Source: an uncultured delta proteobacterium | GTDB lineage: Bacteria; Desulfobacterota; Binatia; UBA9968 | NCBI GenBank assembly: GCA_963745835.1 | Contig: CAVUZH010000021.1 | Location: forward strand, 1-25,167 | DNA: 25,167 nt | Direction: 5' to 3' | Part shown: piece by piece, positions 1,851-20,509 of the stretch | Layout of the letters: each line of letters starts with the position of its first letter | How positions within the stretch are numbered: position 1 is the first letter of the stretch | Translations under genes and position numbers: made by a program | The notes under the pieces: generated by a model | The model's input: only the letters and a program-made list of their open reading frames with translations | What the model was told of the DNA's origin: nothing | The model's database searches: none

Positions 1851-1862
1851 CAAATGCTGATG

Positions 1863-4424: not shown

Positions 4425-4979
4425 ATTAGATCCTCCTGCCAACTGATGTGATTTGCCCAACGACTGCCACGAGCGAGAGGCGTGACGATTCCTGACACAG
4501 GTAGACTGTTACTAAGAGATATCAGCCGTCACCCACGACGCTCGGGCGTGCACGGCATACAGTCATCTACCTCCGTGCATGCTCATTAGGCAAACGGAAA
4601 TAAGCAGTCCAATTTTATCTTCTCTGTCCAGATCCGCGCATGACACGCACCACCCAGAGACATCACGGTAATTTTGCGCGGCTACCATGGCAGCAGATCT
4701 CGCTATGTCTACATTGAATAAGCATCTAGGCGATTGTTGGTTTGACCGTCGGGCAACATTCTACCCTAGAACATAAGTAATCACCTTCCAGCGGCTTAAC
4801 CGCGGGCATTAGATAATCGTGTAGTGTTGCTTCTCAAGCGCCGGATCTTTCCATGTTCCGGCGATTACGTGATTGACGGTGGCGTCTCGTTTCGATCTAC
4901 GAAAACTTTGCGGGTCTTCTATTCCGAGCCGTGTTGATTAGAGGCTCAAAAGTAAAGAGCGGTCGGTAGCAAATTTTTT

Positions 4980-5036
4980 CATTGACTGCGATCCAGTTTC
5001 AATGCATTGACTTGGCGGCCTGGCGAAACCATTGAC
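4980..5036 (+). promoter_or_regulatory. Three CATTGAC direct repeats at 25-bp period plus TCAATGCATTGA palindrome upstream of an SBP gene
   Basis: CATTGAC at 4980, 5005 and 5030; perfect 12-bp palindrome at 4999-5010. Confidence 0.45.
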
Positions 5037-5083
5037 ATCGCTCTCGCCTCGATGGAAAGATCCCCACGAAGGGAGCTATCAAA

Positions 5084-6055
5084 ATGAAGACCCTGCTCAT
5101 CGCGCTATTTTTTATTGCTTCGTTTTGCAACAATTCTGCCCGCGCGCAGCTCAAAATGACCGTCGGCCAGGCGGGCATCAATCCCGGCACCAGCCTTTAT
5201 TTCATCGCCCAAAAAGAAAAACTCTTCGCCAAGCATGGGGTCGAAGTAAACATCGTTGCGACCACCACTACTGCGGCGGTGCAAGGCATGCTCGGTGGCA
5301 GCCTGCATTTGACCCTCGGCGCCGGCCCGGCGTTTATAGCGGCAACATTGGAAGGGTCGCCGCCGTTTGCAGTGATCTCTTCTTGGGTGAACGTTTTTCC
5401 CTATTACATCGTGGCGCGCAAGGAAATCGCTGAGATCGGCGATCTCAAGGGCAAGACCGGCCAAGTGGGCGCCACCTTCGGATCGGCGCCCGACGTGGCC
5501 CTGCGCTTCGGCTTGAGCAAGCTCGGTTTGAATCCGGAAAAAGATGTTAAGCTCATTCAGATGCCGAGACCCGATTGGATCAACGTCATCGGACAACTCG
5601 AGCAAGGCGACGTGCAGTTTTCTGTGCTTCCGCCTCCCTACGACCGCATGGGCGCGTCAAAAGGCATCCACGCGCTTTACGCGCTGCCGGACCTCGGCAT
5701 TCAATGGCAACAAAACGGCGAATGGGTCTTGAAATCCTATGCGGCGAAAAACCGGGAGGTCTTGCTGCGCTTTGAACGCGCTTTGGGCGATGCCATGAAT
5801 GTGTATTTCAATCAGAAAGAAAAAACCCTCGGCTACCTCATCGAATTTCTCGGCAGCAAGCGCGATGACACCGAATATGCCTACGCGGCTTACGCCAAAT
5901 GGGCCGACCGAAATCCCAGGCCGACAACGGAATCGATCAAGAATACGCTAACAGCCATCGCCGCCACGACGCCGGCCGCGGCCAAGGCCGATCCGACGGC
6001 ATTTATCGACACCAGCTTCGTCGATCAGTTGCTGAAAGAAGGATATTTCAAATAA
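5084..6055 (+). CDS. ABC-type substrate-binding protein, SsuA/TauA/NMT1-THI5 family
   Basis: Signal peptide MKTLLIALFF...ARAQ and RBS ggag. Motifs LFAKHGVEV, DLKGKT, LGLNPEKDVKLI and FIDTSFVDQL. Confidence 0.9.
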   Translation: MKTLLIALFFIASFCNNSARAQLKMTVGQAGINPGTSLYFIAQKEKLFAKHGVEVNIVATTTTAAVQGMLGGSLHLTLGAGPAFIAATLEGSPPFAVISSWVNVFPYYIVARKEIAEIGDLKGKTGQVGATFGSAPDVALRFGLSKLGLNPEKDVKLIQMPRPDWINVIGQLEQGDVQFSVLPPPYDRMGASKGIHALYALPDLGIQWQQNGEWVLKSYAAKNREVLLRFERALGDAMNVYFNQKEKTLGYLIEFLGSKRDDTEYAYAAYAKWADRNPRPTTESIKNTLTAIAATTPAAAKADPTAFIDTSFVDQLLKEGYFK

Positions 6056-6259
6056 GAATCTGGCCAGGAAAAACCCGGCACAGAGCTCTGCCAATCCGGT
6101 TAAGTTGGAGAAGATTTGGATTGGAGTCAACACTCCGCGTACCCGGACGACTCGAAAAAAGTTTCGCTGAAATAGAAAAATTCCCTGCTTCCTCAGAGCC
6201 TAAGCAAACGATCGGCTTACGAAATCCAAAAAATCCGCATAAAAGGAAATCGTTCATTT

Positions 6260-6283
6260 CACTCCACTACTCCATCACACCAG
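6260..6283. repeat. Degenerate octamer tandem (cactccac|tactccat|cacaccag)
   Basis: Read directly; lies between the convergent SBP and MFS 3' ends. Confidence 0.5.
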
Positions 6284-6295
6284 CCTTTCCTTTCT

Positions 6296-7629
6296 TCACC
6301 GTATCGTCCGCGCCTTGGGATCGAAAATAAAGAGCGCCACCATGCAGAGCGTGCCGACGATGCTCATCGCCGCTGCGGCCCAGGGGGCTCCGATCGCCGA
6401 CGACAAGGCGCCGATGAGCATGCCACCAAGAAGCAATAGCACCTGATTCATGTGAAAGATCGCAATCGCCCGGCCGCGAAACTCAGGCGGGGAGTAACTT
6501 TGAATGACGGTTTGCACCAGCGCGTGGGAGCTCACGTGGCAAAGCCCGATGGCGGCCATCAAAACCATCGACAGCGAGAACCAGGGTGACGCGGAGAAGA
6601 CCACTACGAGCACGCCGTAAAGCATGACGCCCACCAGCATCATGATGCCGCGCGGCATACGGTCACCGAAGGTGGCGACGATCAGCGCGCTGCCGAACGC
6701 ACCGACGCCCATTGAAGTTAAAAGCAACCCCTGCCCTTGCGCTCCCACCTGGAGAAGGTCCGCGCGAAGATCGGTAACAGCGTCGAAAAAGGCACCATGA
6801 AAAGGGAGGCGACGATCACGATCAACAGGCTGCTGCGAACCTCATCCTTGCTCCAGGAAAATTTCCACCCCGACACGATGCTGCGCGCGAAGGATTCGCC
6901 CGGGCCGCCATGACCGTGTCGCGCCGCGGCAGCGCGCCGCCCCGATACCATTTGCGTCGTCCAGATGGTCGCGAGAATAAAAAACAGACCTTGGACCCCG
7001 TAGGCCACGCCGGTATTGAAAACAGCGATCAACAGGCCCGCCAAGGCCGGTCCGACGCTGCGCGCCATGTTGAAAACGACGGCGTTGAGTCCGATGGCGT
7101 TCGTCAGATTCTCCGGCGGCACGGTGTCGGAGATCATCGCGGCGCGGGAAGGCTGAAGAAACACTTGGACACAGGCCATGAGAACCGCGGTCAAATAGAC
7201 GTGCCACGGCTGAATAAGACCGAAAAGAATCAGCGCTGCCGTGGCGGTGAAAATAAATCCGTTTGCGAACTGCGCCGTCACCACCAGGAACTTGCGGGAA
7301 TAGCGGTCGGCGACGCTGCCGGCGATGGGCGATAAGAACAAAAACGGGATCGCCTGAATGCCGCGCACCAGACCCAGTTGCAGCGCGGAGTCGGTCAATT
7401 GATAGATCAACCAGCCGCGCGTCACCTGATCCATCCAGACGGCGAGAGACGCGAATACCTGGCTGTACCACAGCAAACGGTACTCGCGATGGCGCAGCGC
7501 CTCGAATGCGCGCAGCCGGACGAGTAAGCGGATTAGATAACTGAGCGGCTTTTCAGTCTCGGGACGGGTGCTTTGGCCGGACGGAACATCGGCCGGTTCT
7601 CGGTGACTCAATGGCGATGGCAACTCCAA
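6296..7629 (-). pseudogene. MFS transporter (EntS/DUF894-like) split by a 1-bp frameshift near 6760
   Basis: The 6718-7629 ORF has motif A GSVADRYSRK and N-half helices; the 6296-6748 ORF has C-half helices and PPEFRGR. Restoring one base in ttc gcg cg_ gac ctt gives ...LLPIFARDLLQVGAQGQGLLL. Start uncertain. May be a sequencing error. Confidence 0.85.
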
Positions 7630-7868
7630 ACTGGCAGAAGGAGACGAGAAGGCTCGATGACCCTAACGCCGGGCATAAAGTGATTTTATTCGTATAACAC
7701 GCGGCGGCAAAGCAGGTCCAGTTGCGGGCAATCGACTTACGAAGTGACGTGGGGACGTAGCTACAACATCAAAAATAAGCCAATGCAGCATTCAGCGCAG
7801 CGTCCAAATAAAATGACCGCTTCACTTGCTCCCTATTCGTGACCCTCTTCTACTCGTTCTCACTTGTC

Positions 7869-8858
7869 CTACCTTAGAGATCTCTTCTTAGAAATCCTTC
7901 TACGGCCACTTGAACGTATCCGACTAATCTTGCCGTTTGACTGGATCAGTTCCGAGACCGACGAGACGGACTGCAGCTTGCGCAGAAACTCCAAAAAAGT
8001 AAGCGCCAGTCGGGAGAGATGCTTGTCCTTGTGATAGATAATGTAAACGGGGTATTGAAGATCAATGCCATCAATCTTCTTTGTCGTCAGGATTCCGGCA
8101 TTGGATTCTAGCTCGACGGCCGATCTCGGCATGATCGTTAGTCCAAATCCGGCGGCCAATGCCGCTTTAATGGCCTCGCGCGACCCCAAGGTAACATAAT
8201 CCGTAATGACGACCCCCTTTCGCTGAAGAGCGTCATCGACAAATTTCGCGACGCGACCCGTGTAAGGCAGCAGAAAAGGCTCGGAGAGAATTTCTTCAGG
8301 AAGCAATTTGTCTTTTCTCGCCAGACGATGCTCGGGCGTCAGCACGACCAGCAATTCTTCCTCATAATAATGTTCTCGCACGATAAATTTCGAGCTGACA
8401 TCTCCTCCTACAATCGCAAGGTCGACCTCATTGTCTAACACCCACTGTTCAACCTGACGGCTAAGAGCGGTCTTAACCACAATATTGGTTTCCGGATACT
8501 GCTTCTTGAAGAGCGCAAAAGCGAGAGGAAAGGTAGTTGAACTGGGAACTCTGCTCGCGCCAACTACCAGGTTTCCAATCTTGATTCCGCGCAGGTCTTC
8601 GAGATCGCTTTGAAGACTGGCAATCCAGCCCAGCATTTGCTTGGCATACGTCAAGACAAGCTGACCCTCCGTCGTGATGTGGGTACTTCGCCGCAACCTA
8701 TCGAACAGCCTGACACCGAGATCGCGCTCGAGTTTTTTGATTTGGATCGAGATCGACGGCTGCGTCATGCCAAGCACGGCCGCTGCTTTGGAAAAGTTTT
8801 TCTGCTCGGCAACCAACAGAAAAACTTTCAACTGATGAAGATTGATCTCGACGGCCAT
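7869..8858 (-). CDS. LysR-family transcriptional regulator (CysL/CbbR-like)
   Basis: HTH NLHQLKVF...NFSKAAAVLGMTQPSISIQIKKLERDLGVRLFDR. Substrate domain with EVDLAIV and EAIKAALAAGFGLTIMP. Divergent from the catabolic operon. Confidence 0.95.
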   Translation of the reverse strand: MAVEINLHQLKVFLLVAEQKNFSKAAAVLGMTQPSISIQIKKLERDLGVRLFDRLRRSTHITTEGQLVLTYAKQMLGWIASLQSDLEDLRGIKIGNLVVGASRVPSSTTFPLAFALFKKQYPETNIVVKTALSRQVEQWVLDNEVDLAIVGGDVSSKFIVREHYYEEELLVVLTPEHRLARKDKLLPEEILSEPFLLPYTGRVAKFVDDALQRKGVVITDYVTLGSREAIKAALAAGFGLTIMPRSAVELESNAGILTTKKIDGIDLQYPVYIIYHKDKHLSRLALTFLEFLRKLQSVSSVSELIQSNGKISRIRSSGRRRISKKRSLR

Positions 8859-8867
8859 AAACGTTTC

Positions 8868-8884
8868 TTTATGCAAAGGATAAA
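8868..8884. promoter_or_regulatory. Putative LysR binding box TTTAT-N7-ATAAA (T-N11-A)
   Basis: Inverted repeat tttat gcaaagg ataaa in the AT-rich divergent spacer. A TTGACG -35-like hexamer flanked by ATATAT follows at 8895-8900. Confidence 0.6.
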
Positions 8885-8954
8885 ATTAATATATTTGACG
8901 ATATATGCAAGCAATAGTAGAAGAGCATGAATAAAATTGGACAAGGAGGCTCCC

Positions 8955-10157
8955 ATGAATCAGGCTGATGCCGGACTGCCGCAGATTTCCGTGAATGAGC
9001 GTGATCGACGCTATGCTTTGATCCGACAGGAACTGAGAAATGCGAATGTCGATTGTGCCATCGCGACCGGTACCAATCTTTTTTACGTTACTAACGGGAT
9101 TCTCGGTGAAATGTTCGGTTTGTTGCCTGCGACAGATGATCCGCCCACAGTGGTTATCAATTTTCGCCAACTGGCCGATATTTCCGTCGATGTGCTGCTA
9201 GACATGCAAGAGTGGATTCGAGATATCAGGGGCGGTGTGGATGGCTCACAAATCATCGCAAGAATTAAGGAGCTCAAGCTCGAGAAAGCAACTTTGGGGC
9301 TAGCCGGATATGCCAATATTAATCAGGCGTTCTATGGGCAACTTCAAAAAGCCTTCCCGGAAGCGAAGTTTGCGGACGTATCCAGCATTTTTACCAATGC
9401 AAGAACTATCAAAAGCGAAGAGGAAATCGCCATGATCGAGATGGCGAACCGGATTTTCGACCAGGCGGTGGAGAGAGTTTGCGAAGTCGCCAGGCCTGGC
9501 ATGCTGGGCCGGCGGGTGCTGCAGGAAGGTATCAACGCGATGTGGGCAGCGGGCGGGGATATGCATTCAAGTTTCAACCTGCATTTCGGTTCTGTTCCGA
9601 AGCAGAATCCGGTGCTCATGCAGATTTGTCTCGATCGAGCCATACAAAAGGGAGACATCGGAACTCTGACGGCCCACGCCGAATATCGTCACTATGCCGG
9701 ACACAGCGATCACCAGTTGTCGATCGGCGAGCCGAAGCCGCTTCATCGGGATTTGTTCAAAGCAGTATTGAACGTCAGAGAGAAAGTTCTTGGCACGGTC
9801 AGAGAGGGCGTGACGCATTTGGACCTGGTGGAAACATACCGCAAAGCCGTGGCGGAGACCGGATTTCGATCCTCGCCACACTCGCAGACTCATCAATACG
9901 GCATCGATGTTCCCGAATTTCCGGGACCGGTGTTTAACGTTCCGGATCCTTCAAAGGAACAACTCAGTAAGACTCTCGGTTTAGGATTTAGAGGAAGCAA
10001 TTTCACGTTAAAAGCAGGCATGGTTTACAGCATCTCGCCGACTTTGCTCGCCGATTCCGGCGACGACACCATGCTGGCAGGCACCACGGTAGTTGTTACT
10101 AAAGACGGCTATCGTGAACTCGGTGATCGCAAACTGGAATTGTCTGTTTGTAGGTGA
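8955..10157 (+). CDS. M24 (Xaa-Pro peptidase/creatinase) fold hydrolase with degenerate metal site
   Basis: ATG at 8955 with RBS aaggagg. Creatinase-type N-domain, RTIKSEEEIA, LKAGMVYSISP and VVVTKDGYREL. Confidence 0.85.
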   Translation: MNQADAGLPQISVNERDRRYALIRQELRNANVDCAIATGTNLFYVTNGILGEMFGLLPATDDPPTVVINFRQLADISVDVLLDMQEWIRDIRGGVDGSQIIARIKELKLEKATLGLAGYANINQAFYGQLQKAFPEAKFADVSSIFTNARTIKSEEEIAMIEMANRIFDQAVERVCEVARPGMLGRRVLQEGINAMWAAGGDMHSSFNLHFGSVPKQNPVLMQICLDRAIQKGDIGTLTAHAEYRHYAGHSDHQLSIGEPKPLHRDLFKAVLNVREKVLGTVREGVTHLDLVETYRKAVAETGFRSSPHSQTHQYGIDVPEFPGPVFNVPDPSKEQLSKTLGLGFRGSNFTLKAGMVYSISPTLLADSGDDTMLAGTTVVVTKDGYRELGDRKLELSVCR

Positions 10158-10387
10158 CGAGTTTCCTCGTGCCGAGTGATTGGTGCTGCAGGTAGTCGGC
10201 ACCAAAAGATCAGATGACGGCCGCCGGCAATCAGTCCAAGCCGCGAAGTAGAGCTTTCCTTTGCTGGCAGCATGATATGAGCGACCAGCGTTCTCGAGAG
10301 AGCCACCACTACGATCTGCTTTGTGGCGGGCGAGGCAGGGATGGCTCTCTGCATTTTCGAATCAAAGCTTTTGTCTGCAGGTGAGCG

Positions 10388-12004
10388 ATGGGAGAGAAGA
10401 TCTACAACACATCGGTTTTGATAATCGGCGCTGGTCCGGTTGGACTGGCGCTAGCTCTGGAGCTGGGTTTACGTGGGATTCCATGCCTGATCGTTGACCA
10501 GCGTGACGGGAAAGTCACGCTGCCCAAGATGAATACGGTAAATACCCGAACGATGGAATTCTGCCGACGCTGGGGCGTTGCCACGAAAATCAAGCAAGCG
10601 GGCATCGGCGAAGACTATCCCCTGGACATCCGGTTCATCACCAGTATGGCCGGCTACGAGCTGCTGCGCTTTCGTTACCCAACGTATCGCGAGCGCGGCA
10701 AGCTCGATTACACGCCGGAAGGCAACTGTGTCTGCTCACAGCTCTGGTTCGATCCGATACTGCTCGAGCGTGTCCGGTCGTTTCCCAACATCGAGGTGCG
10801 CCTGCGCACCCGCTTGGAATCGTTCTCGCAATCCGAGCAAAACGTGACTGCGGAGCTGCTCGATGCTGAATCAAATCAGCGGAAAACCGTGCGCGCGTCG
10901 TACCTGATCGGCTGCGACGGCGCCGACAGTTCGGTGAGAGAAATTTCGGGCATCACATTGCACGGCGATCCGCGTCTCAATTCGAACTTGAACGTGTTTT
11001 TTAGCTGCCCTGAATTCGTTTCCATGCAACACGGCAGACCGGCGCAAATGCATCGCATTGTCGGTGCCGAAGGCATGTGGGGCAACATGCATGCATTAGA
11101 CGGCAAGGGTCTATGGCGCATGACTGTGCAACTGAAAGGCGACTCTCAACCACCGATCGAGTCCATTATACGGCGAGTGGCCGGTTGCGACGTGCAGTTT
11201 CAGGTGCTGGCGGTCTATAAATGGGATCGCCGGAAGATGATCGCCGAGCATTATAGAACGGGCCGCGTGTTTTTGGCTGGGGATGCCGCGCACCAGATGT
11301 CGACCACCGGCGGCTTTGGCATGAACACCGGCATCGGTGATGCGGTCGATCTTGCATGGAAGCTTCAGGCGGCGCTGCAAGGTTGGGCTGGGCCGGCGCT
11401 GCTGGATAGCTACGAAACTGAGCGAAAACCCGTCGCGCTCTACAACCTGGACGAGGCGACGGACATGTTTTGGAAAACCAAAGCGCTGCTGCCAGGGGAT
11501 GAAACGCTCTCGGAGAATTCGCCGAAAGGCGAGCGCTTGCGCGAGCTATTCGCCAAAACGCTCATCGAGAGTAATGTGCAGCGGCAATTCGATGTCGAGG
11601 GCGTGGCGCTGGGGTACCGTTACGATCCTTCGCCGATCATTGTGCCGGACGGCACCCCACCGCCGCCCGCCGACGTACAGGTCTATACGCCAACGGCACG
11701 TCCCGGATCGCGCGCGCCGCACGCGTGGCTGGAGGACGGCCGATCGACGTTGGATCTTTTCGGCAATGGCTTTACCCTGTTGCGATTTGGCGGCGATTCT
11801 CCCGATCTGTCCGATGTGGTTGCGGCCGCGCACGCCGCCGGCCTGCCGTTAACCGTTTACGATATCGATGAAGCGTCGGTCGCAGCTCTCTACGAGCGTA
11901 AGTTGGTACTCGTGCGCTCCGACGGGCACGTCGCTTGGCGTTCCGATTATCCGCCTGAGAATGCGCGGAGCTTGATCGACCAGGTGCGCGGCGCGCTGGG
12001 ATGA
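10388..12004 (+). CDS. FAD-dependent monooxygenase (class A aromatic hydroxylase, PheA/TfdB/RdmE-like)
   Basis: GAGPVG Rossmann motif, GCDGADS, RVFLAGDAAH, GGFGMNTG, LLDSYETER, PGSRAPH and C-terminal LVRSDGHVAWR. Confidence 0.93.
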   Translation: MGEKIYNTSVLIIGAGPVGLALALELGLRGIPCLIVDQRDGKVTLPKMNTVNTRTMEFCRRWGVATKIKQAGIGEDYPLDIRFITSMAGYELLRFRYPTYRERGKLDYTPEGNCVCSQLWFDPILLERVRSFPNIEVRLRTRLESFSQSEQNVTAELLDAESNQRKTVRASYLIGCDGADSSVREISGITLHGDPRLNSNLNVFFSCPEFVSMQHGRPAQMHRIVGAEGMWGNMHALDGKGLWRMTVQLKGDSQPPIESIIRRVAGCDVQFQVLAVYKWDRRKMIAEHYRTGRVFLAGDAAHQMSTTGGFGMNTGIGDAVDLAWKLQAALQGWAGPALLDSYETERKPVALYNLDEATDMFWKTKALLPGDETLSENSPKGERLRELFAKTLIESNVQRQFDVEGVALGYRYDPSPIIVPDGTPPPPADVQVYTPTARPGSRAPHAWLEDGRSTLDLFGNGFTLLRFGGDSPDLSDVVAAAHAAGLPLTVYDIDEASVAALYERKLVLVRSDGHVAWRSDYPPENARSLIDQVRGALG

Positions 12005-12050
12005 AGGCGGCTTTGCACATGTTTCGTCTTGACGAAAGAGGAGTGGAGCC

Positions 12051-12230
12051 TTGCGCGAACTGATCAAAAAGTTGGATGCCGAATACGGCTTTAATCTAAG
12101 CGAGTCGGAGATCGACCTCATCGTCCGGCAGGCTCAAAAAGCGGACGAGCTCCTGCGTTCCTTGCACACGCTCGATCTTCCAGAAATCGCTCCGCTGATG
12201 AAGATTGACCGGCAGGAAACCCATGAATGA
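12051..12230 (+). CDS. Small 59-aa GatC/AtzG-like amidase partner protein (absent from the ORF track)
   Basis: TTG start 7 nt after RBS gaggag. Translation MRELIKKLDAEYGFNLSESEIDLIVRQAQKADELLRSLHTLDLPEIAPLMKIDRQETHE. Its 3' end overlaps the amidase start by 8 nt. Confidence 0.7.
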   Translation: MRELIKKLDAEYGFNLSESEIDLIVRQAQKADELLRSLHTLDLPEIAPLMKIDRQETHE

Positions 12231-13662
12231 AAGCGATCTTCTCAATTTGACGATCACGGCGGCCGCGTCTCGGATTCGCAGTCGCGAATTGTCTCCCGTG
12301 GAATTGACGCGCTCGTATTTAGCGCGAATTCAGAAATTCAATCCGGTCCTCAATGCCTATCAAACACTGACGGCCGAAGCGGCCCTGGCCGATGCCGAAG
12401 CCGCGGAAAAAGAAATTGTCGCAGGGAAATATCGCGGCCGGCTGCACGGTATCCCAGTTTCCATCAAAGATAATCTGGCGACCCGCGGCATCAAAACTAC
12501 CGCAGGGTCGAAGATGCTCGCCGATTGGATTCCAGAATTTGACGCCACCGTAGTGGCTCGCCTCAAGAACGCCGGCGCGGTGGTTCTCGGCAAAACCAAT
12601 ATGCATGAGTGGGCAGCCGGTGGTACCACGATCAATCCGTACTTCGGAACCACGTTCAATCCATGGGATTTGTCGAGGATTCCCGGCGGTTCGAGCGGCG
12701 GCTCAGCGGCGGCGGTCGCGGCTGATTTGTGTCTGGCCTCGATCGGCACCGACAATGCCGGTTCGGTCAGAAATCCCGCGGCGATGTGCGGCGTCGTCGG
12801 CCTGAAGCCGACCTACGGACGGGTCAGTGTTTTCGGCGGAGTGGCGGGGACCGGGGGATATTCCACCAACCACTTCGGTGTTTTCAGCAAGACCGCGCAG
12901 GACAGCGCTTTGGTTCTGCAGGTCATCGCAGGCAAGGATGACAAGGATCCGTTAAGCTCGGCTGCTTCGGTCGCAGACTATTCGACAGCGTTAAAGACGG
13001 GTGTGAGGGGCAAGAAGTTCGGTCTCATCATGGATTATTTCGACGACCTCGTGACCGGTGAATCTGAGAAGCTCTTCTCGCAAGCGATTCAATCGCTGGA
13101 ATTCCTCGGTATGAGGCCCGAGAAGATCTCGATTCCGCACGCATCGCTAATCCCCGCAGTGCAGCTGGCCACCAGCCGGGTGGAGAATGCCGCGGCGCAC
13201 GATCACTATCTGAGAACCCAACCGCGCAATTACAGCCCGGATATTCTTTATCGCCACATTCATGCGCTGACGATTCCGGCGACCACCTATGTCGCCGCTC
13301 AAAAGGTCCGACGAATTTTATGCGATGAGTTCGCAACGTCATTCAAGTCGGTAAGCGTAATCGTCACTCCGGTATCGATTCCGGCGCCGACGGTCGAAGA
13401 GTGCCGGCAAGGCTTCGCGATTATTGACGGCAAGAAAGTAAACTTCCAAGATAGTCGCGGCAGCTATTGGGGACTGAGCACGATTCCATTCAACGTGACG
13501 GGACTGCCGGCGATTTGCGTCTGTTGCGGGTTCTCGTCATCAGGTCTGCCTCTCGCGATTCAAATCGCCGGTTCGCCGTTCGAAGAAAGCGCGGTACTCC
13601 AAACGGCCCACGCCTACGAGCAGGACGCACAATGGTACAAAAGAAGACCGAGCCTGTCTTGA
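12223..13662 (+). CDS. Amidase-signature family amidase (GatA/AtzE-like)
   Basis: Catalytic Lys in LHGIPVSIKD, plus LGKTNMHE, GGSSGGS, GTDNAGSVRNPA, GLKPTYGRVS and PFNVTGLPA. Confidence 0.93.
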   Translation: MNESDLLNLTITAAASRIRSRELSPVELTRSYLARIQKFNPVLNAYQTLTAEAALADAEAAEKEIVAGKYRGRLHGIPVSIKDNLATRGIKTTAGSKMLADWIPEFDATVVARLKNAGAVVLGKTNMHEWAAGGTTINPYFGTTFNPWDLSRIPGGSSGGSAAAVAADLCLASIGTDNAGSVRNPAAMCGVVGLKPTYGRVSVFGGVAGTGGYSTNHFGVFSKTAQDSALVLQVIAGKDDKDPLSSAASVADYSTALKTGVRGKKFGLIMDYFDDLVTGESEKLFSQAIQSLEFLGMRPEKISIPHASLIPAVQLATSRVENAAAHDHYLRTQPRNYSPDILYRHIHALTIPATTYVAAQKVRRILCDEFATSFKSVSVIVTPVSIPAPTVEECRQGFAIIDGKKVNFQDSRGSYWGLSTIPFNVTGLPAICVCCGFSSSGLPLAIQIAGSPFEESAVLQTAHAYEQDAQWYKRRPSLS

Positions 13663-13720
13663 ATATTCAATTTTCTTTAGCGGATCGACGCAGGGCTCAG
13701 TATGGTTTTAGGAGAAGTCC

Positions 13721-15106
13721 ATGGCCTATCGAGATCTGAGAGCATTTCTGGCGCGTTTGGAAGAAGTGGATGAACTGGTTCGTATCGCTGTCGAAGTCGA
13801 TCCCGTTCATGAAGTCGCCGCTGTTTGCAGAAAACTCTTAAACGACGGCGGACCCGCCGTATGCTTCGATCGTCTGAAGGGGCAGCGCATGCCGCTCGTA
13901 TCGAATATCGTCGCTACTCGCGCGCGCTTTGCGATGGCTCTGGAGACATCGCCGGAAGATCTGGCTTCCGAGTTGGCGACGCGCATGGCTAAGAAAATTG
14001 ATCCGGTGGTGGTCAAGAATGCGGCATGCAAGGAGAACGTCATCTCGAGCAAAGATGTGAACCTATACGATTTACCAATTCCAGTATGGAGCGAACTGGA
14101 CGGCGGGCCGTTTCTCACGCTTCCTTGTGATATCAGCAAGGATCCCCAGACTGGAATAAGAAACGCCGCGATCTACCGCTCTCAAGTCTTTGACCGAAAT
14201 ACTATAGGAATTCATGGGTCGGCGTATCGTCATCTTTTCCGGCATCGGGCCAAGGCCGGGCAAGATAAAGGGTTTCCGCTCGCCATCGCAATGGGTTGCG
14301 ATCCGACCATTCATATCGCTTCGGCAACGCCGATGCCGGTAGACTACGACGAGCTGGCGTTGGCGGGAGCGCTTCGCGGCGAACCCGTGGAGCTTGTGCC
14401 GTGCGAAACGATACCGCTGGAAGTTCCCGCCACCTCCGAGATCGTGCTGGAAGGCTATATCAAGCCAAACAGTGAAACCCGGCGCGAGGGCCCCTTCGGC
14501 GACTGGCTGGGATACTATGACGAACAAAGCCAGTGCCCAACTATGGAGGTAACAACAATTACGCATCGTCATCAACCGATCATGTTGGCATCTTTTGAGG
14601 GACGGCCACCACACGACAGCGCGGTTATCAACAGCGTGATGTTCGAGCAAGAATTGATGCGCGCGGTGTCGCTGCCGGGGATAAAAAAAATTCACGTCCA
14701 CGACGCGGGCGGCCTCACCGCCGTTGCCGCCTTGGAAAATAAGAGCGAAGGATATGCACGACAAATGGCGTTGGCGCTGTTGGGCACTTGGCCGGGTCGC
14801 CATATTAAAGTACTGATTCTGATCGACGCGGATCTTGATCCCGGCAATGCTACCGACGTGAACTGGGCGTTGTCGACTCGCTTCCAACCCGACCGCGACA
14901 TCCAGGTTCTCCACAACTTGGTGGGAAGCCGGCTCGATCCTTCAACCCATCATCACTCGACTTCCAAAATCATTATCGACGCCACAAAAATTGAGACACA
15001 GGATCAGCCGACGGAATGCTGGCCCCACAAGGACGTTTGGCAACGAGTTCTTGCCGACTGGGCGCGCTACGGCGTTTCTAACAGGATCCGCCGCTCGCAC
15101 GGATGA
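13721..15106 (+). CDS. UbiD-family prFMN-dependent (de)carboxylase
   Basis: RBS aggag. Motifs YRDLRAFL, DGGPF, RNAAIYR, YDELALAG, EIVLEG, EGPFGDWLGYY, WALSTRFQP, LDPS and KIIIDATK. Confidence 0.93.
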   Translation: MAYRDLRAFLARLEEVDELVRIAVEVDPVHEVAAVCRKLLNDGGPAVCFDRLKGQRMPLVSNIVATRARFAMALETSPEDLASELATRMAKKIDPVVVKNAACKENVISSKDVNLYDLPIPVWSELDGGPFLTLPCDISKDPQTGIRNAAIYRSQVFDRNTIGIHGSAYRHLFRHRAKAGQDKGFPLAIAMGCDPTIHIASATPMPVDYDELALAGALRGEPVELVPCETIPLEVPATSEIVLEGYIKPNSETRREGPFGDWLGYYDEQSQCPTMEVTTITHRHQPIMLASFEGRPPHDSAVINSVMFEQELMRAVSLPGIKKIHVHDAGGLTAVAALENKSEGYARQMALALLGTWPGRHIKVLILIDADLDPGNATDVNWALSTRFQPDRDIQVLHNLVGSRLDPSTHHHSTSKIIIDATKIETQDQPTECWPHKDVWQRVLADWARYGVSNRIRRSHG

Positions 15107-15149
15107 TCGCGCACGAAGGTTCGAGGCTGCAGGAACGAGGAGTCAGAAC

Positions 15150-16196
15150 GTGGAAATGATCTGTTTCGCATCCAGGTTGGTTAAAGGAAGCGGTTTTCCA
15201 GGAAAAACTCGACAAGCTCTTTTCGGAATCATTTTGGCGCTCTCCATAGTTGTATCTCCCCTCCCGGTTGTCGAGGCTCAGCCACTAAAAAAAGTCTATC
15301 TGGGCATCCCGTCTTCCGTAGTTCTCATGGGCAGCTTCTTTGTTGCCAAAGAGCAAGGATATTACAAGCAAGAAGGATTGGACGTGGATTTTGTCGTGAT
15401 CACGGGCGCCGGTGTGGTGCAAGCTCTCATCGGCGGCGATCTTCATTTTGCGATCTCTGCGGGCGCCGCTCTGGTGCCTATCCTCCGAGGCATTCCTCTC
15501 CGGTTCATATTCACATCTTTCAATCGGCCGATATTTTGGATCTACAGCAGGCCGGAAATACAATCGGTCGAAGGACTTAAGGGAAAACGGTTGGGTATTT
15601 CCAGTTTCGGAAGCGGCCCTGATGTCCTTCTTCACAGTTTCTTCAAGAAATATGGTCTTGATCGAGGCCGGGACGTTACGATGATGGCCATAGGGTCAAC
15701 CCCTTCCCGGGTGACTGCTCTTAAAACCGGCGTAATCGAAGCGGCGGTACTCCCCATCGAAGGCGCATTCGCAGCTCGGGATGCCGGCTTTCGCGAACTC
15801 GCGTCGTTTATAAAAGAGGATGATCTCGTCGATGTCTTGGGCAGCATCGTTACGAATCAGAAGCTGCTCGAAACCGATCCGAACTTGGTCGAGAAGTTTA
15901 TCAGGGCGAGTCTCAAAGGATTTCTCTATTATCGTGGTAATCGCCCAGGTTCGATTCGAATTCTCGCGAAAATACTAAAAACGAGCACCGACGAAGCGGC
16001 GCGAATCTACGATACGGTGATCCCGGCAACAACGAAGGATGGAACAGTCGATGCCGCGTTGCAAAGGAAAGCATTGGAATATGTCCTAGATCGGTTAGGA
16101 ACGAAAGAACCTCCCCCATTGGATCGAATCTACAATTATTCGATCACCAAGAATGCTTTCGCTGATCTACAAGCCAACGGGTGGGTGCCGCAATGA
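15150..16196 (+). CDS. ABC-type substrate-binding protein, SsuA/TauA/NMT1-THI5 family
   Basis: GTG at 15150 (RBS gaggag) or ATG at 15156. Hydrophobic signal ending VEAQ. Motifs VAKEQGYYKQEGLDV, ALIGGD and LKGKRLGISSFGS. Confidence 0.88.
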   Translation: MEMICFASRLVKGSGFPGKTRQALFGIILALSIVVSPLPVVEAQPLKKVYLGIPSSVVLMGSFFVAKEQGYYKQEGLDVDFVVITGAGVVQALIGGDLHFAISAGAALVPILRGIPLRFIFTSFNRPIFWIYSRPEIQSVEGLKGKRLGISSFGSGPDVLLHSFFKKYGLDRGRDVTMMAIGSTPSRVTALKTGVIEAAVLPIEGAFAARDAGFRELASFIKEDDLVDVLGSIVTNQKLLETDPNLVEKFIRASLKGFLYYRGNRPGSIRILAKILKTSTDEAARIYDTVIPATTKDGTVDAALQRKALEYVLDRLGTKEPPPLDRIYNYSITKNAFADLQANGWVPQ

Positions 16197-16321
16197 ACTA
16201 ATGAATCAAAAGGCACAACTGCTTATTTTAAAGTGGCGGAGCGGCTGTAGGACTACAGCGACAGCTCCGAGTTTTTGTCGGCTTGCCGGAATTGATCGTT
16301 TCGAAAACACAGGTATCAATC

Positions 16322-17302
16322 ATGATAACAAGATCCTTGCAATATGTCGTAATTTGCTTGGGAGCAATGTTGACGCTCGTGTCGTCAATCGAAGCTCGAA
16401 CCATCAATGTGGCCATACCCTGTTACTGTTTCCAGTACGTACCTTTCTTTGTCGCCAAGGACAGAGGATATTATCGAGAAGAAGATTTAGATGTGCAATT
16501 GGTTGTGATGGGTGGTGGTATCGGACTGCGAGCCCTTATCGGCGGAAACGTAGAATTCGCGGCAACCGGCGAGCCTGCGGTGCTCTCTGCCCACCTCAGT
16601 GGAGCGCGCCTCCAGATTCTTTTCAGCAGCTATTACAGGCCGTTGCTCTGGCTGTACTCTGATCCGAAAATCAGGTCTATTACAGACCTGAAGGGAAAGA
16701 AAATTGGAGTTTCGGGTATCGGTGCCGCGACAGATACATTAATGCGCGACATCCTGAAGAAGCATGGCATTGAGGGAGGCCGCGAAGTGGTAATGCTCGC
16801 GCTAGGATCTCCCGACGCGCGCTTTATTGCTCTAAAGACGGGAAATGTCGACGCCGCTGTTCTTCCTGAAGGGTTGAAATTTGTTGCCGACGAAGCGGGA
16901 TTACACGAGTTGGTTTCCTTCCTTAATGAAGATGTCTATTTATTGTCGGGAAGCGTCGGCGCTCGAGAAAATTTAATCACGAGCGATCGAAGTCTAGTAG
17001 AAAAATTCCTTCGAGGAACTGTAAAAGGATTGCTCTATACTCAATCCAATCGATCGGCCGCTCTGCCGTATGTAGTGCGGACCCTGAAGGTAAAAGAAAG
17101 CCATGCAGAAAAAATTTTCGATTTGTCCTTACCGGGGTTTACCCGCGGTGGATTTGTCGATGAAAAACTTCAAAAGGAAGCGTATCGCCAAGCCGTTGAT
17201 CGTCTAGCAATAAAAGAACCTCCTCCGGTAGACAGAGTCTTCAATTACAGCATAACAAGAAACATTTTGGCTGATCTTGAATCGAAAAGGTGGAAACCAT
17301 GA
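16322..17302 (+). CDS. ABC-type substrate-binding protein, paralog of the upstream SBP
   Basis: ATG at 16322 with signal ending IEA. Motifs VAKDRGYYREEDLDV and DLKGKKIGVS. C-terminus KEPPPVDRVFNYSIT mirrors KEPPPLDRIYNYSIT of the neighbour. Confidence 0.88.
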   Translation: MITRSLQYVVICLGAMLTLVSSIEARTINVAIPCYCFQYVPFFVAKDRGYYREEDLDVQLVVMGGGIGLRALIGGNVEFAATGEPAVLSAHLSGARLQILFSSYYRPLLWLYSDPKIRSITDLKGKKIGVSGIGAATDTLMRDILKKHGIEGGREVVMLALGSPDARFIALKTGNVDAAVLPEGLKFVADEAGLHELVSFLNEDVYLLSGSVGARENLITSDRSLVEKFLRGTVKGLLYTQSNRSAALPYVVRTLKVKESHAEKIFDLSLPGFTRGGFVDEKLQKEAYRQAVDRLAIKEPPPVDRVFNYSITRNILADLESKRWKP

Positions 17303-17686
17303 TAAACGCGGTCGCAGACGAAGACATCGTATCCTTGAGGCGAAAATAAAAATCGTACATCGACGAAAAGTCGGAGTCGAATGAGCGGAACAAAATACGT
17401 CGAGTGCGACAAGTTGATTCAGCCACTGTTTGTCGGACGAAACACGTCAATTGCTTATGCGCTCACCGCCTGCTCACTACAAAACAGATCCAAAGATCCG
17501 ATTGCTCCTGACTCTGTCACAAAAGATCCGGCTTCCACTTTGAGATGGTTCTCCAAGCGGCCTGCGAGATGCTAAGCAGCAAAGAATGCAGGGTGACCGT
17601 CTGGTTGCCCCTAAGCTGGAAATTCAGGGACCGGCTGATTTGCGCGACGCAATTTGCCCGATTAAATCCAAGCTCTAGCGATAACA

Positions 17687-18610
17687 TCAAGCTTGCTTTG
17701 CGATCGTCCAGAGAGTTTCCATTCGAGTGACAAAATCTTCGGCCGTTTCCCCTGACGGCAAAAACTGCGCGTAAATCGTGATCTCCGCGGCGCCGAGTTT
17801 CCTCGCCGCCGCGAAATCCTCGCCGATCTGCTCGGGCGTCCCAGTAAACTCGACTCGTTCTTTTTCAATGGGCGTTTTGTGAAGCTCTACGCCCGCCGTA
17901 ATAATGAGCTCGAGCGCAGAGGCATTGCGACCGGCCTCTTTTGCCATGTTCTTGATGCCATCGAACATCGCTCCGACGCCGCTCAGCGGAATACCAACTG
18001 GAAGCCAGGCGTCGGCGTGAGTGGCGACACGCTTCAAGGCGGAAGGCGTAAATGCCGCCATATAGATCGGCGGATGAGGTTTCTGCACGGGCTTTGGCCC
18101 GATGAACGATTTTGCAATCCGATAATAGTTGCCGTGAAACTCCACCGGATCCGTCGTCCAGATTTTCTTGAGTACCTCGATCGACTCATCGGCGCGTTTG
18201 CCGCGAGCTTGCCAGGCCGCGCCGGCCGCTTCGTATTCATCCGGCGACCATCCGATACCGAATCCCACCCGCAACCGTCCCCGCGACAAAACATCGAGAG
18301 TGGTCAGGCGCCGCGCCAACAAAACCGGATTGTACCAGGGAAGGTTGAGGACACCGGTTGCCAGAGCGATGCGGCTGGTATGCGCAGCGGCAAACGTCAG
18401 TGTCTCCACGGGATCGAGCACGTTCTTATACTGAACCGGTAAAGAACCGTCGCCGATCGGATATGGCGCCTGTGGATTCACCGGCCAGAGTATGCGATCG
18501 AGAACCCAAAGGCTGTCAAAACCCAAATCTTCGGCGCGCTTGGCAACCATGACCAACGCTTCCGGTCCGGCTATCGAACCTACCTGTGGAAGTGCAAATC
18601 CGAAACGCAT
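17687..18610 (-). CDS. LLM-class (luciferase-like) oxidoreductase, probably F420-dependent (Rv2161c-like)
   Basis: ATG at 18610 with RBS aggagg. Motifs MRFGFALP, AEDLGFDSLWV, DPVETL, TLDVLSRGRLRVGFGIGW and PKPVQKPHPPIY. Confidence 0.88.
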   Translation of the reverse strand: MRFGFALPQVGSIAGPEALVMVAKRAEDLGFDSLWVLDRILWPVNPQAPYPIGDGSLPVQYKNVLDPVETLTFAAAHTSRIALATGVLNLPWYNPVLLARRLTTLDVLSRGRLRVGFGIGWSPDEYEAAGAAWQARGKRADESIEVLKKIWTTDPVEFHGNYYRIAKSFIGPKPVQKPHPPIYMAAFTPSALKRVATHADAWLPVGIPLSGVGAMFDGIKNMAKEAGRNASALELIITAGVELHKTPIEKERVEFTGTPEQIGEDFAAARKLGAAEITIYAQFLPSGETAEDFVTRMETLWTIAKQA

Positions 18611-18806
18611 GATAAACCTCCTAAACAAGATAATACGGCGATCACCGCCGCGCCATGTTATTCGTTCACAACCTTAACATGCATTGACGGTGTTCGCAGT
18701 GGGCTCTATCGACACTGGGCGCCTCATCTACCTCGGTTTTGCGGTTGCGCTTTGCTAAATCCATCTATCCATAAGCGGTGAAGCGCCGGGCGAGCGAGGA
18801 GGCCCG

Positions 18807-19106
18807 ATAAAAAGAAAACCCGAAATTTAAAAATTATGCGGAGGAAAAAACCAGAACTCGCGCGTCGCTAGGGCTTGAGAAGACTCGCCCTTTTCGGCTC
18901 CTATGCCCGCGCGGATCAGCGCGACGACAGCGAAGTGGATATTTTGGTGAAATCGAACCCGAGATCGGTCTCCGTTTCGTTGAGCTCGCGAAACGAATTG
19001 AGAACACCCTCGTATTCGCCCCGAGGTCGTCTCGCGCCGGGCGATCAAGCCACGTTATTGGGAGATCATCCAAGAGGAATTGATCAATGTCCCGTATGAT
19101 CGGTGA
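18807..19106 (+). pseudogene. Minimal nucleotidyltransferase (MntA-type antitoxin of HEPN/MNT TA) pseudogene
   Basis: Stitched reading KIMRRKKPELARR*GLRRLALFGSYARADQRDDSEVDILV / IEPEIGLRFVELAKRIENTL / EVVSRRAIKPRYWEIIQEELINV. In-frame TAG at 18869 plus two frameshifts (~18950, ~19020). GS..D-x-D type motif present as E-V-D. Confidence 0.8.
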
Positions 19107-19179
19107 GATTTCGCCTGTTTTCACATCAGTAAATTGCATGGCCACTATTTCATCGACTGGCGACTGATCGCCCTTGAGA

Positions 19180-19249
19180 ATTCAAATTGGTTCAGAAGTT
19201 CAAACCACTTACAAGTTAACTGGTTCGAGTCGTTCCAGACGTTCAAATG
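19180..19249. repeat. Degenerate GTTC-core 8-10 bp tandem array
   Basis: attcaaattg|gttcagaa|gttcaaacc then gttcgagtc|gttccagac|gttcaaatg (exact 9-bp period at 19223, 19232, 19241). Confidence 0.55.
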
Positions 19250-19284
19250 TCCGACTCGTTTTTGGCCGGGCACCTGAAGAGCCT

Positions 19285-20457
19285 TTAGCCGCTCTTCGCT
19301 AACTTTTTCTCGACAATTCGAGCAAACACGCTCGCGCCGAGCGCCAGCGCCGCGTCATTGAAATCGTAGGCGGGGTTATGCACTTCGCAGGCGCCCTCGC
19401 CCGCGCCGTTGCCGATGTTGAAGTAAGCGCCCGGGACCTTTTCCAGCATGAACGAAAAATCCTCCGAAGCCACGATCAGCGAAGGATTGCGGTTAACGTT
19501 GTCTTCTCCGACTACCTCGGCACAAACCCCCGCCACGAAATCCGCCTGTGTCGGATCGTTGATCGTGGGCGCGAAGATCACGCGGAAATCGACCTCCGCC
19601 GTGGCGCCGAACGCCTCCGCGGTTCCCATCACCACCCGGCGCATGCCGGTTTCGATCAGCGACATGACCTCGCGCGTGAACGCGCGTACGGTTCCGGAGA
19701 GCTGTGCTGTCTGCGGAATGACGTTGTAGGCGTCGCCCGCATTGATCTTGGTCACCGAAACCACCGCCGCATCGATCGGCCGGACGTTGCGCGAGACGAT
19801 GCTCTGCAGCGCGATGACGATGTGCGCGGCCACCAGCACCGGATCGACCCCGCTCTCAGGCCGCGCGCCATGGGAGCCCTTGCCCGTAATACGGATGTCG
19901 AAGAACCCGCCACCCGCCATCATCGGTCCGGCGCGCACCGCGAATTTACCGAGTGTTAGCCCGGGCCGGTTGTGCATGCCGAACACCACGTCGCAGGGGA
20001 ATTTCTCGAACAGTCCGTCTGCAATCATCGCGCGCGCCCCGCCGATGCCTTCCTCGGCTGGCTGGAAGATGAAGTTCACCACGCCGTCGAAGTTGCGCGT
20101 GTCGGCGAGATATTTTGCCGCGCCGAGCAGCATGGTGGTATGGCCGTCATGACCGCACGCGTGCATGCGCCCATCGTTCGTCGAGCGGTGCGCGAAAGTA
20201 TTCGCCTCGTGAATCGGCAGCGCGTCCATATCGGCGCGCAGACCGACCGAACGCCCCGCGCTTCCCGTGCGCAGCACGCCCACCACGCCAGTCTTGCCGA
20301 TTCCGTGGTGTACCTCCAGCCCGAAACCGCGCAGCTTTTCCGCGACAAGTTTAGAGGTGCGGTTTTCCTCGAAACCGAGCTCGGGGTGCGCGTGGATGTC
20401 GCGGCGCCAGAGCGTCATCTCCTCCTGCACGCGAACAATCGCTTCGATCACGGCCAT
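19285..20457 (-). CDS. M20D family amidohydrolase (hippurate hydrolase / aminoacylase-like)
   Basis: WRRDIHAHPELGFEE, GLRADMDALP, MHACGHDGH, FQPAEEG, GMHN, GSHGARP, SEDF and HNPAYDFND. Confidence 0.95.
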   Translation of the reverse strand: MAVIEAIVRVQEEMTLWRRDIHAHPELGFEENRTSKLVAEKLRGFGLEVHHGIGKTGVVGVLRTGSAGRSVGLRADMDALPIHEANTFAHRSTNDGRMHACGHDGHTTMLLGAAKYLADTRNFDGVVNFIFQPAEEGIGGARAMIADGLFEKFPCDVVFGMHNRPGLTLGKFAVRAGPMMAGGGFFDIRITGKGSHGARPESGVDPVLVAAHIVIALQSIVSRNVRPIDAAVVSVTKINAGDAYNVIPQTAQLSGTVRAFTREVMSLIETGMRRVVMGTAEAFGATAEVDFRVIFAPTINDPTQADFVAGVCAEVVGEDNVNRNPSLIVASEDFSFMLEKVPGAYFNIGNGAGEGACEVHNPAYDFNDAALALGASVFARIVEKKLAKSG

Positions 20458-20509
20458 ATTCCTATCATTCCTCGAATGCTCATCCGTGGACGCTGTGGTC
20501 AGCGGATCC

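Follow-up and report, generated by a model that had tools for sequence, protein, structure and literature searches.

Enzymes of the UbiD family are wanted as reversible (de)carboxylation catalysts, and those of the Fdc1 type act on α,β-unsaturated acids. In AtzE-AtzG (the 1-carboxybiuret hydrolase of Pseudomonas sp. ADP) and in GatA-GatC, a small GatC-like gene stands directly before that of the amidase, as it does at the locus described here; AtzG is a truncated GatC-like subunit, with which AtzE is reported to co-purify and on which its solubility or activity is reported to depend, and the connection between AtzG, AtzE and GatC reportedly appears in print. Creatinase and the ectoine hydrolases EutD/DoeA are M24 members that are not peptidases. 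A published precedent for a UbiD enzyme in the catabolism of N-heterocycles is xanthine-8-carboxylate decarboxylase (PMC12391406). Here, we describe a 25,167-nt stretch of DNA from an uncultured bacterium of the class Binatia (GenBank contig CAVUZH010000021.1, referred to as the window), which is the entire contig C21 of a 7.28-Mb assembly of 25 contigs. It carries a LysR-headed block of eight genes, among them genes for a UbiD decarboxylase, an amidase, an M24 protein, and a flavin monooxygenase. We lean towards reading this block as a discrete catabolic unit for the uptake and breakdown of an aromatic or N-heterocyclic compound that bears a carboxyl or carboxamide group. Its gene content, as obtained from the open reading frame (ORF) listing together with Pfam and NCBIfam scans, is the following:

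Whole cassette: 7740..17683; delimited by a soil contig that joins 7739 to 17684 (9944 bases skipped); homology to the related genome G391 covers 7950-17302.
LysR regulator: ORF 7869-8876, minus strand; likely start ATG 8858, the ORF reaching to TTG 8876; HTH_1 73.9 bits, LysR_substrate 147.6 bits.
Divergent control region: 8859..8954; box at 8880-8894, TTGACG at 8895-8900, ribosome-binding site AAGGAGG at 8943-8949.
M24 protein with Creatinase_N domain: ORF 8937-10157, plus strand; likely start ATG 8955 behind AAGGAGG; Peptidase_M24 82 bits, Creatinase_N 33 bits.
Class A FAD monooxygenase: 10388-12004, plus strand; FAD_binding_3 258 bits, Rng_hyd_C 46.6 bits.
Small ORF of 59 amino acids: 12051-12230, plus strand; behind GAGGAG, overlapping the amidase start by 8 bases.
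Amidase: ORF 12205-13662, plus strand; start ATG 12223; Pfam Amidase 382 bits.
UbiD decarboxylase: 13721-15106, plus strand; UbiD_N 81, UbiD 231, UbiD_C 87 bits.
NMT1/THI5 periplasmic binding protein 1: ORF from TTG 14991 to 16196, plus strand; likely start ATG 15156; NMT1 88.8 bits.
NMT1/THI5 periplasmic binding protein 2: 16283-17302, plus strand; NMT1 86.1 bits.

This gene set, its coordinates, and the divergence of the LysR gene from that of the M24 protein were borne out as given in a preliminary description of the same DNA, and the scans returned the same protein families. All enzyme and binding-protein genes lie on one strand, with the LysR gene divergent, and the intergenic gaps range from −8 to ∼86 bp, apart from 230 bp between the M24 and monooxygenase genes. 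The claim that these genes form one LysR-headed grouping held when the locus was compared with G391, a genome of the same family but of a different genus: all eight genes are collinear there with those of the window, and the flanks of the G391 copy are unrelated to the window flanks. At the amino acid level, identities were 87–88% for LysR (the last ∼27 codons of which are not common to G391), 91% for the M24 protein, 87% for the monooxygenase, 75% for the small ORF, 81% for the amidase, 86% for UbiD, and 88% and 74% (the latter over 240 amino acids) for the first and second binding protein. At the nucleotide level (blastn against the G391 locus, L149), homology extended over 7950-17302 of the window at 69–85% identity (77–85% up to 16197) and ended at 17302. 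As a scale reference, the rpoB loci of the two genomes share 76% identity at the DNA level and 90% at the protein level. In addition, one contig from soil run X8 (depth 5.2, with 62 letters on its shorter side) joins position 7739 to position 17684 and thus lacks precisely the block; this is one contig only, obtained at a likeness threshold of 90%. The eight genes are collinear in G391 between unrelated flanks, their identity is at least equal to that of the rpoB locus, and the X8 contig lacks exactly this block; together, they therefore make up a genuine functional unit.

The X8 contig also hints at alleles with and without the cassette, and a presence/absence polymorphism among soil Binatia is likely; where contigs of runs X1, X8, and X14 leave stretches of the block uncovered, this is uninformative. 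Near-identical DNA was present in soil and rhizosphere runs from nine studies. The cassette is probably mobile; terminal direct or inverted repeats bounding it were not found. Within the assembly, window positions 1-8624 match the start of contig C2 at 98.9% identity, and 20091-25167 match the end of contig C5 at 96.6%. Thus, C21 is a redundant bridging copy of which only 8625-20090, essentially the operon, is unique, and this redundancy probably adds to the 9.3% "contamination" figure of the assembly.

G005, a genome of the same genus, carries on a 5.4-kb contig an M20 gene, the M24 gene (92% identity), and the start of the monooxygenase gene (91%), at which the contig ends; no LysR gene lies upstream of M24, and homology begins at window position 8914. 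Thus, the M24-monooxygenase pair is the most constant part in the comparison with G005 and G391, and a genome need not carry all of the genes. The best UbiD match among 40 relatives was 47% identical, no UbiD ortholog was found in seven genomes of the same genus (best ∼41% identity), and the other monooxygenase matches in 400 genomes of the class did not exceed 50% (the genome's own paralog, 46%). A scan of genome contigs based on the UbiD alignment returned only distant UbiDs (≤48%), and none of the 83 loci inspected (L009-L091) had the gene set; among them, amidase, UbiD, and binding-protein genes stood together only at L089, from the metagenome scan, a 2.97-kb contig with the amidase end, UbiD, and a binding protein at 81–91% identity. 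The protein database held 24 clusters of M24 relatives at 67–93% identity and four UbiD clusters at 64–94%, which indicates that further copies of cassette genes exist in soils; close M24 relatives at 73–74% identity are labeled "Candidatus Binatia bacterium," and, like an Atlas label, these names point to Binatia for the organism of the window. Co-occurrence in other genomes, on which the preliminary description had staked its reading, was thus confirmed by G391 and by near-identical soil contigs, but not in the sister species searched.

A neighborhood of unrelated paralogs without a common pathway is an alternative reading of the locus, and the genome is indeed crowded with members of the families concerned: PF01977 (UbiD) matched 34 places (one gene being split, hence ∼33 genes), ∼309 loci resembled NMT1 binding proteins (about one per 24 kb), and there were 13 M24 matches and 12 amidase loci. 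G005, which keeps the M24 and monooxygenase genes but in whose assembly neither an amidase nor a UbiD ortholog was found, would fit such a view, and so would the G391 locus (L149, on G391:C13, 10508-11533, and 12856-13832), in which an extra SBP_bac-type gene lies between the M24 and monooxygenase genes; there, the LysR gene consists of two ORFs, possibly through a frameshift. However, eight genes that are collinear between unrelated flanks at 77–85% nucleotide identity, compared with 76% for rpoB, that lie on one strand with short gaps, and that are precisely missing from a soil contig make a chance assemblage improbable.

Of the enzymes of the cassette, the UbiD decarboxylase belongs firmly to its family, with 344.2 bits on TIGR00148 (cut-off 244.85) and all three UbiD domains. 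Its best solved relative was HmfF (6h6x, 228 bits over residues 5-422; 6h6v, 227 bits), followed by E. coli UbiD (211 bits), BsdC (208 bits), indole-3-carboxylate decarboxylase (171 bits), and Fdc1 (140 bits). Residues N148, H171, E211, R153, and E256 were invariant in the family alignment (A1); in Fdc1 numbering, we take N168/H191/E233 to be the metal/cofactor ligands and R173/E277/E282 the Arg-Glu-Glu catalytic network. At the last position of the motif EGPFG(E/D), which corresponds to Glu282 of Fdc1 and presumably provides the general acid, the window enzyme has Asp261 and its four nearest relatives in A1 likewise have Asp; Glu occupies it in 18 of the 25 rows of A1 and in 31 of 33 UbiD copies of the same genome. 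In a quick maximum-likelihood tree of 57 proteins, the window enzyme grouped with P0001-P0004 and the G391 copy (support 100), with one protein from a betaproteobacterial metagenome-assembled genome (MAG) as sister. The enzyme is of an HmfF-like clade. Its group and the sister protein fall within a clade of 26 rows that includes none of the other paralogs from the genome; the gene, without a close paralog among the ∼33, therefore did not arise by recent duplication within this genome. In sister genera, the nearest relatives of UbiD (44–47% identity) stand in different gene contexts. Members of the sister clade adjoin bicupins, an aldehyde dehydrogenase, and a molybdenum hydroxylase. As separate observations on this clade, relatives of family f2 (L122, L123, and L124, in G027, G029, and G025) carry tandem UbiD pairs flanked by bicupin, FAD_binding_2, and ABC transporter genes, and at L121 (G016:C520, 4043-10212) two genes resembling nitrogenase component 1 and a double NifH-like ATPase gene, which constitute a nitrogenase-like reductase, lie beside a UbiD relative of 46–47% identity. 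The genome has a single ubiX gene, at G000:C16:384321-384866 (TIGR00421, 245 bits), so the partner of UbiD is available from outside the window; that the window itself contains neither ubiX nor a ring-cleavage dioxygenase had been stated before, correctly as judged by the Pfam scan.

The monooxygenase is of the phenol hydroxylase type, with a C-terminal thioredoxin-like domain, and its translation carries the GxGxxG, DG, and GD motifs. The only family cut-off that it passed was that of NF004780 (PRK06126; 632.7 bits, cut-off 445), a subfamily without assigned function. RebC was its best solved relative (2r0c, 424.7 bits), ahead of 2,4-dichlorophenol 6-monooxygenase (213 bits) and 2-hydroxybiphenyl 3-monooxygenase (182 bits). 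Amidohydro_2 is a family that includes non-oxidative decarboxylases, and two paralogs of the monooxygenase in the same genome (L113 and L115) adjoin Amidohydro_2 proteins and binding proteins. In an alphaproteobacterial MAG (L048), a relative of 46–47% identity lies beside genes for UbiD, a TctC binding protein, and a creatininase-family protein; it was the only one of the 83 loci with such a relative beside UbiD. The repeated pairing of the monooxygenase with Amidohydro_2 or UbiD supports a partnership between hydroxylase and decarboxylase. The relationship to RebC, an enzyme of rebeccamycin biosynthesis, and the presence of aklavinone hydroxylases and MbnF among the NCBIfam matches might alternatively suggest that the cluster makes or tailors a secondary metabolite derived from indole or pyrrole, with the RebC-like flavoenzyme and the decarboxylase processing a carboxylated intermediate. 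This is very unlikely, given that neither block nor window contains a gene for a nonribosomal peptide synthetase, a polyketide synthase, or a RebO/RebD/RebP-like core enzyme, that the monooxygenase passed no cut-off other than that of NF004780, and that a LysR regulator, together with a pair of periplasmic binding proteins, is suggestive of uptake.

In the amidase, the triad Lys82-Ser157-Ser181 (numbered from ATG 12223) is intact and invariant, and it lies within the signature GGSSGGS...GS(V)R. The scores on the GatA model (346.9, cut-off 481.1) and on the AtzE family models (313.8, cut-off 461; 307.9, cut-off 425.75) all stayed below the equivalog thresholds; matches in the PDB were GatA (4wj3, 276 bits) and 6c62 (200 bits), the latter deposited as "biuret hydrolase" but which we take to be AtzE. 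The small ORF upstream of it did not match Pfam, NCBIfam, or the PDB at the sequence level, nor GatC or AtzG when the PDB was searched by profile. It has, however, 13 database relatives (69–95% identity) that were called as genes by others, and direct comparison by hhalign with five GatC proteins aligned it with the N-terminal two thirds of GatC (80% probability, E 1.4e-5, 39 columns in register). One Atlas neighbor cluster of the small ORF scores 0.90, and 34% of its members carry GatC. The pairing of small protein and amidase that had been proposed for this locus is real: each of the three closest amidases in the genome (57–63% identity) has a homolog of the small ORF directly upstream, which makes four of four with that of the window, and the pair also occurs in G391. 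More distant amidases of the genome lack the small ORF, except for the true gatC-gatA pair on C14, which has the same gene order. The small ORF is predicted to be a truncated GatC/AtzG-like small subunit of the amidase. Its assignment as a VdcD/BsdD-type decarboxylase subunit was rejected, as the nearest UbiD gene is ∼12 kb or more away at the three loci of the amidase paralogs.

The M24 protein differs from canonical metallopeptidases of its family at the metal site. In an alignment of the window protein with nine orthologs and 11 other M24 proteins of the same genome, the window protein and every one of the nine orthologs have T, H, H, S, G in the five metal-ligand columns, compared with the canonical D, D, H, E, E, which the methionine aminopeptidase-like copy of the genome retains; four of the five ligands are thus lost. 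Alignment to prolidase 1pv9 agreed for the first three ligand positions. The protein accordingly lacks the five-ligand set of M24 metallopeptidases (prolidase and aminopeptidase P) and cannot be counted among the canonical metallohydrolases; its predicted role is that of a metal-independent C-N hydrolase. Its predicted model (mean pLDDT 80.6) matched prolidases, the ectoine hydrolase EutD, and creatinase about equally well in Foldseek (TMq 0.72–0.77), so that the nearest cannot be separated from the others. Relatives at 52–58% identity were single-copy in 23 sampled genomes of three families. At all three loci scanned from f1 and f2, they adjoin OCD/mu-crystallin genes and further M24 paralogs; at a fourth locus (f3), a DHDPS-family gene is present instead.

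This context is the main evidence for a non-aromatic substrate, such as a cyclic amidine or imino-acid derivative (ectoine-like, or derived from proline or pipecolate), of which the M24 protein would open the ring and the amidase would remove the amide nitrogen, with UbiD acting on an α,β-unsaturated acid. The fold match to EutD (TMq 0.74) is in line with this, as are weak matches of the M24 protein to ectoine hydrolase models and two genes in the flanks of the cassette, an M20 amidohydrolase with 356 bits on DoeB2 (under the cut-off) and an Asp/Glu-racemase-like gene that weakly matches EutA. The ectoine hydrolase scores, however, are far under their cut-offs (47.3 against 575 and 44.9 against 613 bits), neither score nor neighbors qualify the protein as a DoeA/EutD equivalog, the likeness being confined to the fold, and both flanking genes lie outside the block shared with G391. 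Moreover, the monooxygenase falls in the group of aromatic-ring hydroxylases, and the window UbiD is nearest to HmfF, UbiD, and BsdC, which decarboxylate heteroaromatic and phenolic acids, Fdc1 following only with 140 bits. A non-aromatic substrate is therefore considered unlikely, though less so than the other alternatives.

The two NMT1 binding proteins are 41% identical to each other over 327 amino acids, and for the first only weak relatives were present in the PDB. In the genome as a whole, a tblastn search with an SBP_bac-type binding protein gave ∼100 matches, and 95 matches to ABC permease domains were counted, none of the latter in the window. At several loci of the genome, a binding-protein gene lies directly 3′ of a UbiD gene on the same strand.

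Control by LysR is a reasonable inference from the arrangement of the genes. The protein has both HTH_1 and LysR_substrate domains (no NCBIfam equivalog cut-off was reached), its gene is divergent, and the 96-bp spacer contains a candidate T-N11-A site, ATAAAATTAATATAT (T-N11-A / ATA-N9-TAT box), at 8880-8894, followed by TTGACG. The spacer core (8879-8920) is identical to G391 in 39 of 42 bases, slightly above the 85% identity of the adjoining genes. The T-N11-A box that the preliminary description had noted is thus present in the divergent spacer, but ATA-N9-TAT is not more frequent than expected by chance (three in the window, 1.63 expected; 20 of 100 shuffled sequences reached three), so that only the position of the box is suggestive. 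A promoter scan scored no canonical sigma-70 promoter in the spacer, and terminator-like sites did not exceed the shuffled expectation. A second ATA-N9-TAT site lies at 7675-7689, upstream of a transporter gene of the MFS type and just outside the cassette.

The catabolic character of the unit is supported by the divergence of LysR from enzyme genes that travel with binding proteins, by the neighbors of the monooxygenase paralogs, and by those of the UbiD sister clade; the chemistry proposed below is inferred from family membership. In a scheme in which the order of steps is not fixed, uptake would begin with the two periplasmic binding proteins, which would bind the substrate and pass it on to a transporter in the membrane whose genes lie elsewhere. 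As a two-subunit enzyme on the pattern of AtzE-AtzG or GatA-GatC, the amidase would convert the carboxamide to the acid, and the metal-free M24 enzyme would cut a second C-N bond (amidine, lactam, or N-acyl), as creatinase and ectoine hydrolase do. UbiD, dependent on prenylated flavin mononucleotide and supplied with this cofactor by the distant UbiX, would remove a ring carboxyl group. Ring hydroxylation, ahead of this decarboxylation or following it, would be the task of the RebC-like flavin monooxygenase; the product would then pass to ring-cleavage enzymes encoded elsewhere. LysR would turn the operon on from the conserved divergent spacer in response to the substrate or an intermediate. 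Similar chemistry had been suggested before for this locus; it is plausible and is partly backed by the recurring gene partnerships. A more specific version is offered tentatively, namely that the 9.9-kb cassette is a mobile presence/absence unit of soil Binatia for a so far undescribed route of N-heteroaromatic carboxamide mineralization, with a two-subunit AtzEG-like amidase and a metal-free M24 enzyme cutting C-N bonds, an Asp-variant UbiD from a clade without a studied member taking off the carboxyl group, and a RebC-like hydroxylase readying the ring for cleavage.

Several observations weigh against a dedicated pathway for an aromatic or N-heterocyclic compound. All four enzymes are far from any characterized ortholog, the nearest relatives being GatA for the amidase (276 bits), prolidase for the M24 protein (66 bits in the PDB sequence search), HmfF for UbiD (228 bits), and RebC for the monooxygenase (425 bits). 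The OCD/mu-crystallin genes beside the M24 relatives recall the catabolism of ectoine or imino acids, and not that of aromatic compounds. UbiD has Asp for Glu at a position that is nearly always Glu in the genome's other copies. With one binding-protein gene per ∼24 kb, adjacency of such genes is weak evidence of little specificity. No membrane component of a transporter, no ring-cleavage enzyme, and no flavin reductase is encoded in the block. The spread is narrow: the full block occurred in only one of 400 other genomes of the class (G391; M24 91%, monooxygenase 87%), and the M24 gene of the operon type in two of 89 other genomes of the family (G391 and G005). In the 96%-complete assembly of G005, orthologs of the amidase (best match 58%) and of UbiD were not found, which implies that the five enzymes need not always act together. 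Lastly, RNA run X20 contained only 6% of the sampled words, and its short identical contigs may be DNA carry-over rather than transcripts.

If the proposed chemistry is true, it would provide the first function for the UbiD clade with Asp at the general-acid position, for the metal-free M24 orthogroup and the NF004780 flavin monooxygenases, and for the AtzEG-like family of two-subunit amidases, of which the genome has four copies. It would also show how catabolic modules for specific substrates are packaged in uncultured soil Binatia, whose genomes have thirty-odd genes for UbiD enzymes and orphan binding proteins by the hundreds. A compact unit with its own binding proteins and regulator provides direct handles on the substrate. 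The cassette is nevertheless one among many uncharacterized catabolic operons in MAGs and of a fairly ordinary kind; its main value is as a source of unstudied branches of the UbiD, M24, amidase, and monooxygenase families.

The flanks of the cassette (17687-18628, 19285-20457, 136-3182, and 22966-23802) carry more genes of the catabolic type: besides the M20 amidohydrolase and the Asp/Glu-racemase-like gene mentioned above, an F420-type luciferase-like oxidoreductase, a PrpD/MmgE protein, and an alpha/beta hydrolase. Four further NMT1 binding proteins are encoded there, and every flank gene lies outside the block shared with G391. The MFS transporter gene (6296-7629, minus strand) is split at ∼6760 by a one-base deletion relative to the C2 copy, which is one frame of 455 amino acids; the split reflects either variation between strains or an error in the assembly. 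An intergenic element of ∼130–150 bp at 3050-3201, with the inverted ends CAGGCTGCTGAAAAGGATC ... GATCCTTTGAGCAGCCTG, has 11 other copies in the genome (83–88% identity) and looks like a miniature inverted-repeat transposable element or a repetitive extragenic palindromic element. No Rfam family was found in the window.

A diverged copy of a described pathway was also considered, namely of hydroxymethylfurfural/furandicarboxylic acid (HMF/FDCA) degradation (hmf), of lumazine/pterin cluster I, or of cyanuric acid degradation (atzDGEHF). The nearest solved relative of UbiD is HmfF, some relatives of UbiD are labeled "2,5-furandicarboxylate decarboxylase 1" by one source, amidase and small subunit resemble AtzE-AtzG, and the lumazine pathway employs a UbiD enzyme (PMC12391406). 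However, the window contains neither furoyl-CoA synthetase or dehydrogenase genes nor an adjacent ubiX, neither a molybdenum dehydrogenase nor an Amidohydro_2 isomerase, and neither an AtzD-family cyanuric acid hydrolase nor an allophanate hydrolase (AtzH was not searched by name); models for the latter matched only the amidase itself (214.7, cut-off 487). All equivalog cut-offs were missed, and the window qualifies neither as an hmf locus (by orthology, hmfG, and furoyl-CoA genes nearby) nor as an atzDGEHF operon or a lumazine/pterin cluster I. Of all alternatives, a diverged copy of one of these pathways therefore has the least to commend it and is hardly to be expected. That no named pathway has this gene set, as asserted in the preliminary description, is supported by these comparisons, by the one with ectoine degradation, and by the literature within our coverage, outside which most subscription journals fall.

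Compared with the individual systems, the window UbiD has the family-conserved Asn/His/Glu and Arg/Glu positions in common with HmfF, and HmfF likewise depends on UbiX, which the window genome encodes elsewhere; the two are distant, the window enzyme and its five nearest relatives have Asp in place of Glu in the motif EGPFG(E/D), hmf partner genes are absent beside the window UbiD, and the latter belongs to a clade of its own. The window is likewise without the gatB or atzD/F genes that accompany GatA-GatC and AtzE-AtzG. With creatinase and EutD/DoeA, the M24 protein has the two-domain creatinase/prolidase fold in common (TMq 0.74–0.77), and it resembles them as a predicted C-N hydrolase, without the canonical dinuclear metal site. 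Sequence likeness is marginal (47 against 575 bits), no creatinase was among the PDB sequence matches, and the T/H/H/S/G pattern was compared with M24 proteins of the same genome only, not residue by residue with creatinase or EutD. RebC/StaC and phenol hydroxylase-type enzymes are built like the window monooxygenase, with FAD_binding_3 and a C-terminal thioredoxin-like domain; the indolocarbazole biosynthesis context of RebC/StaC was not found there. As in the orphan binding-protein expansions of the Bug/TctC type, the window family is mostly without adjacent permease genes, but the former are TctC and the latter NMT1/THI5 (SsuA-like) proteins. Lumazine/pterin cluster I of Cupriavidus sp. LA-1 (PMC12391406) likewise serves the catabolism of an N-heterocycle and, in the accessible text, places a C-N-cleaving, hydrolase-type enzyme before a UbiD-family decarboxylase. 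According to the same text, its enzymes include a molybdenum dehydrogenase, an Amidohydro_2 isomerase of two subunits, a UbiX of its own, and a pterin deaminase; the window block has none of them, and, unlike the block, the cluster has no M24, amidase-signature, or flavin monooxygenase gene. Set beside these systems, the gene combination of the cassette is a new arrangement of known enzyme families in a rare cassette.

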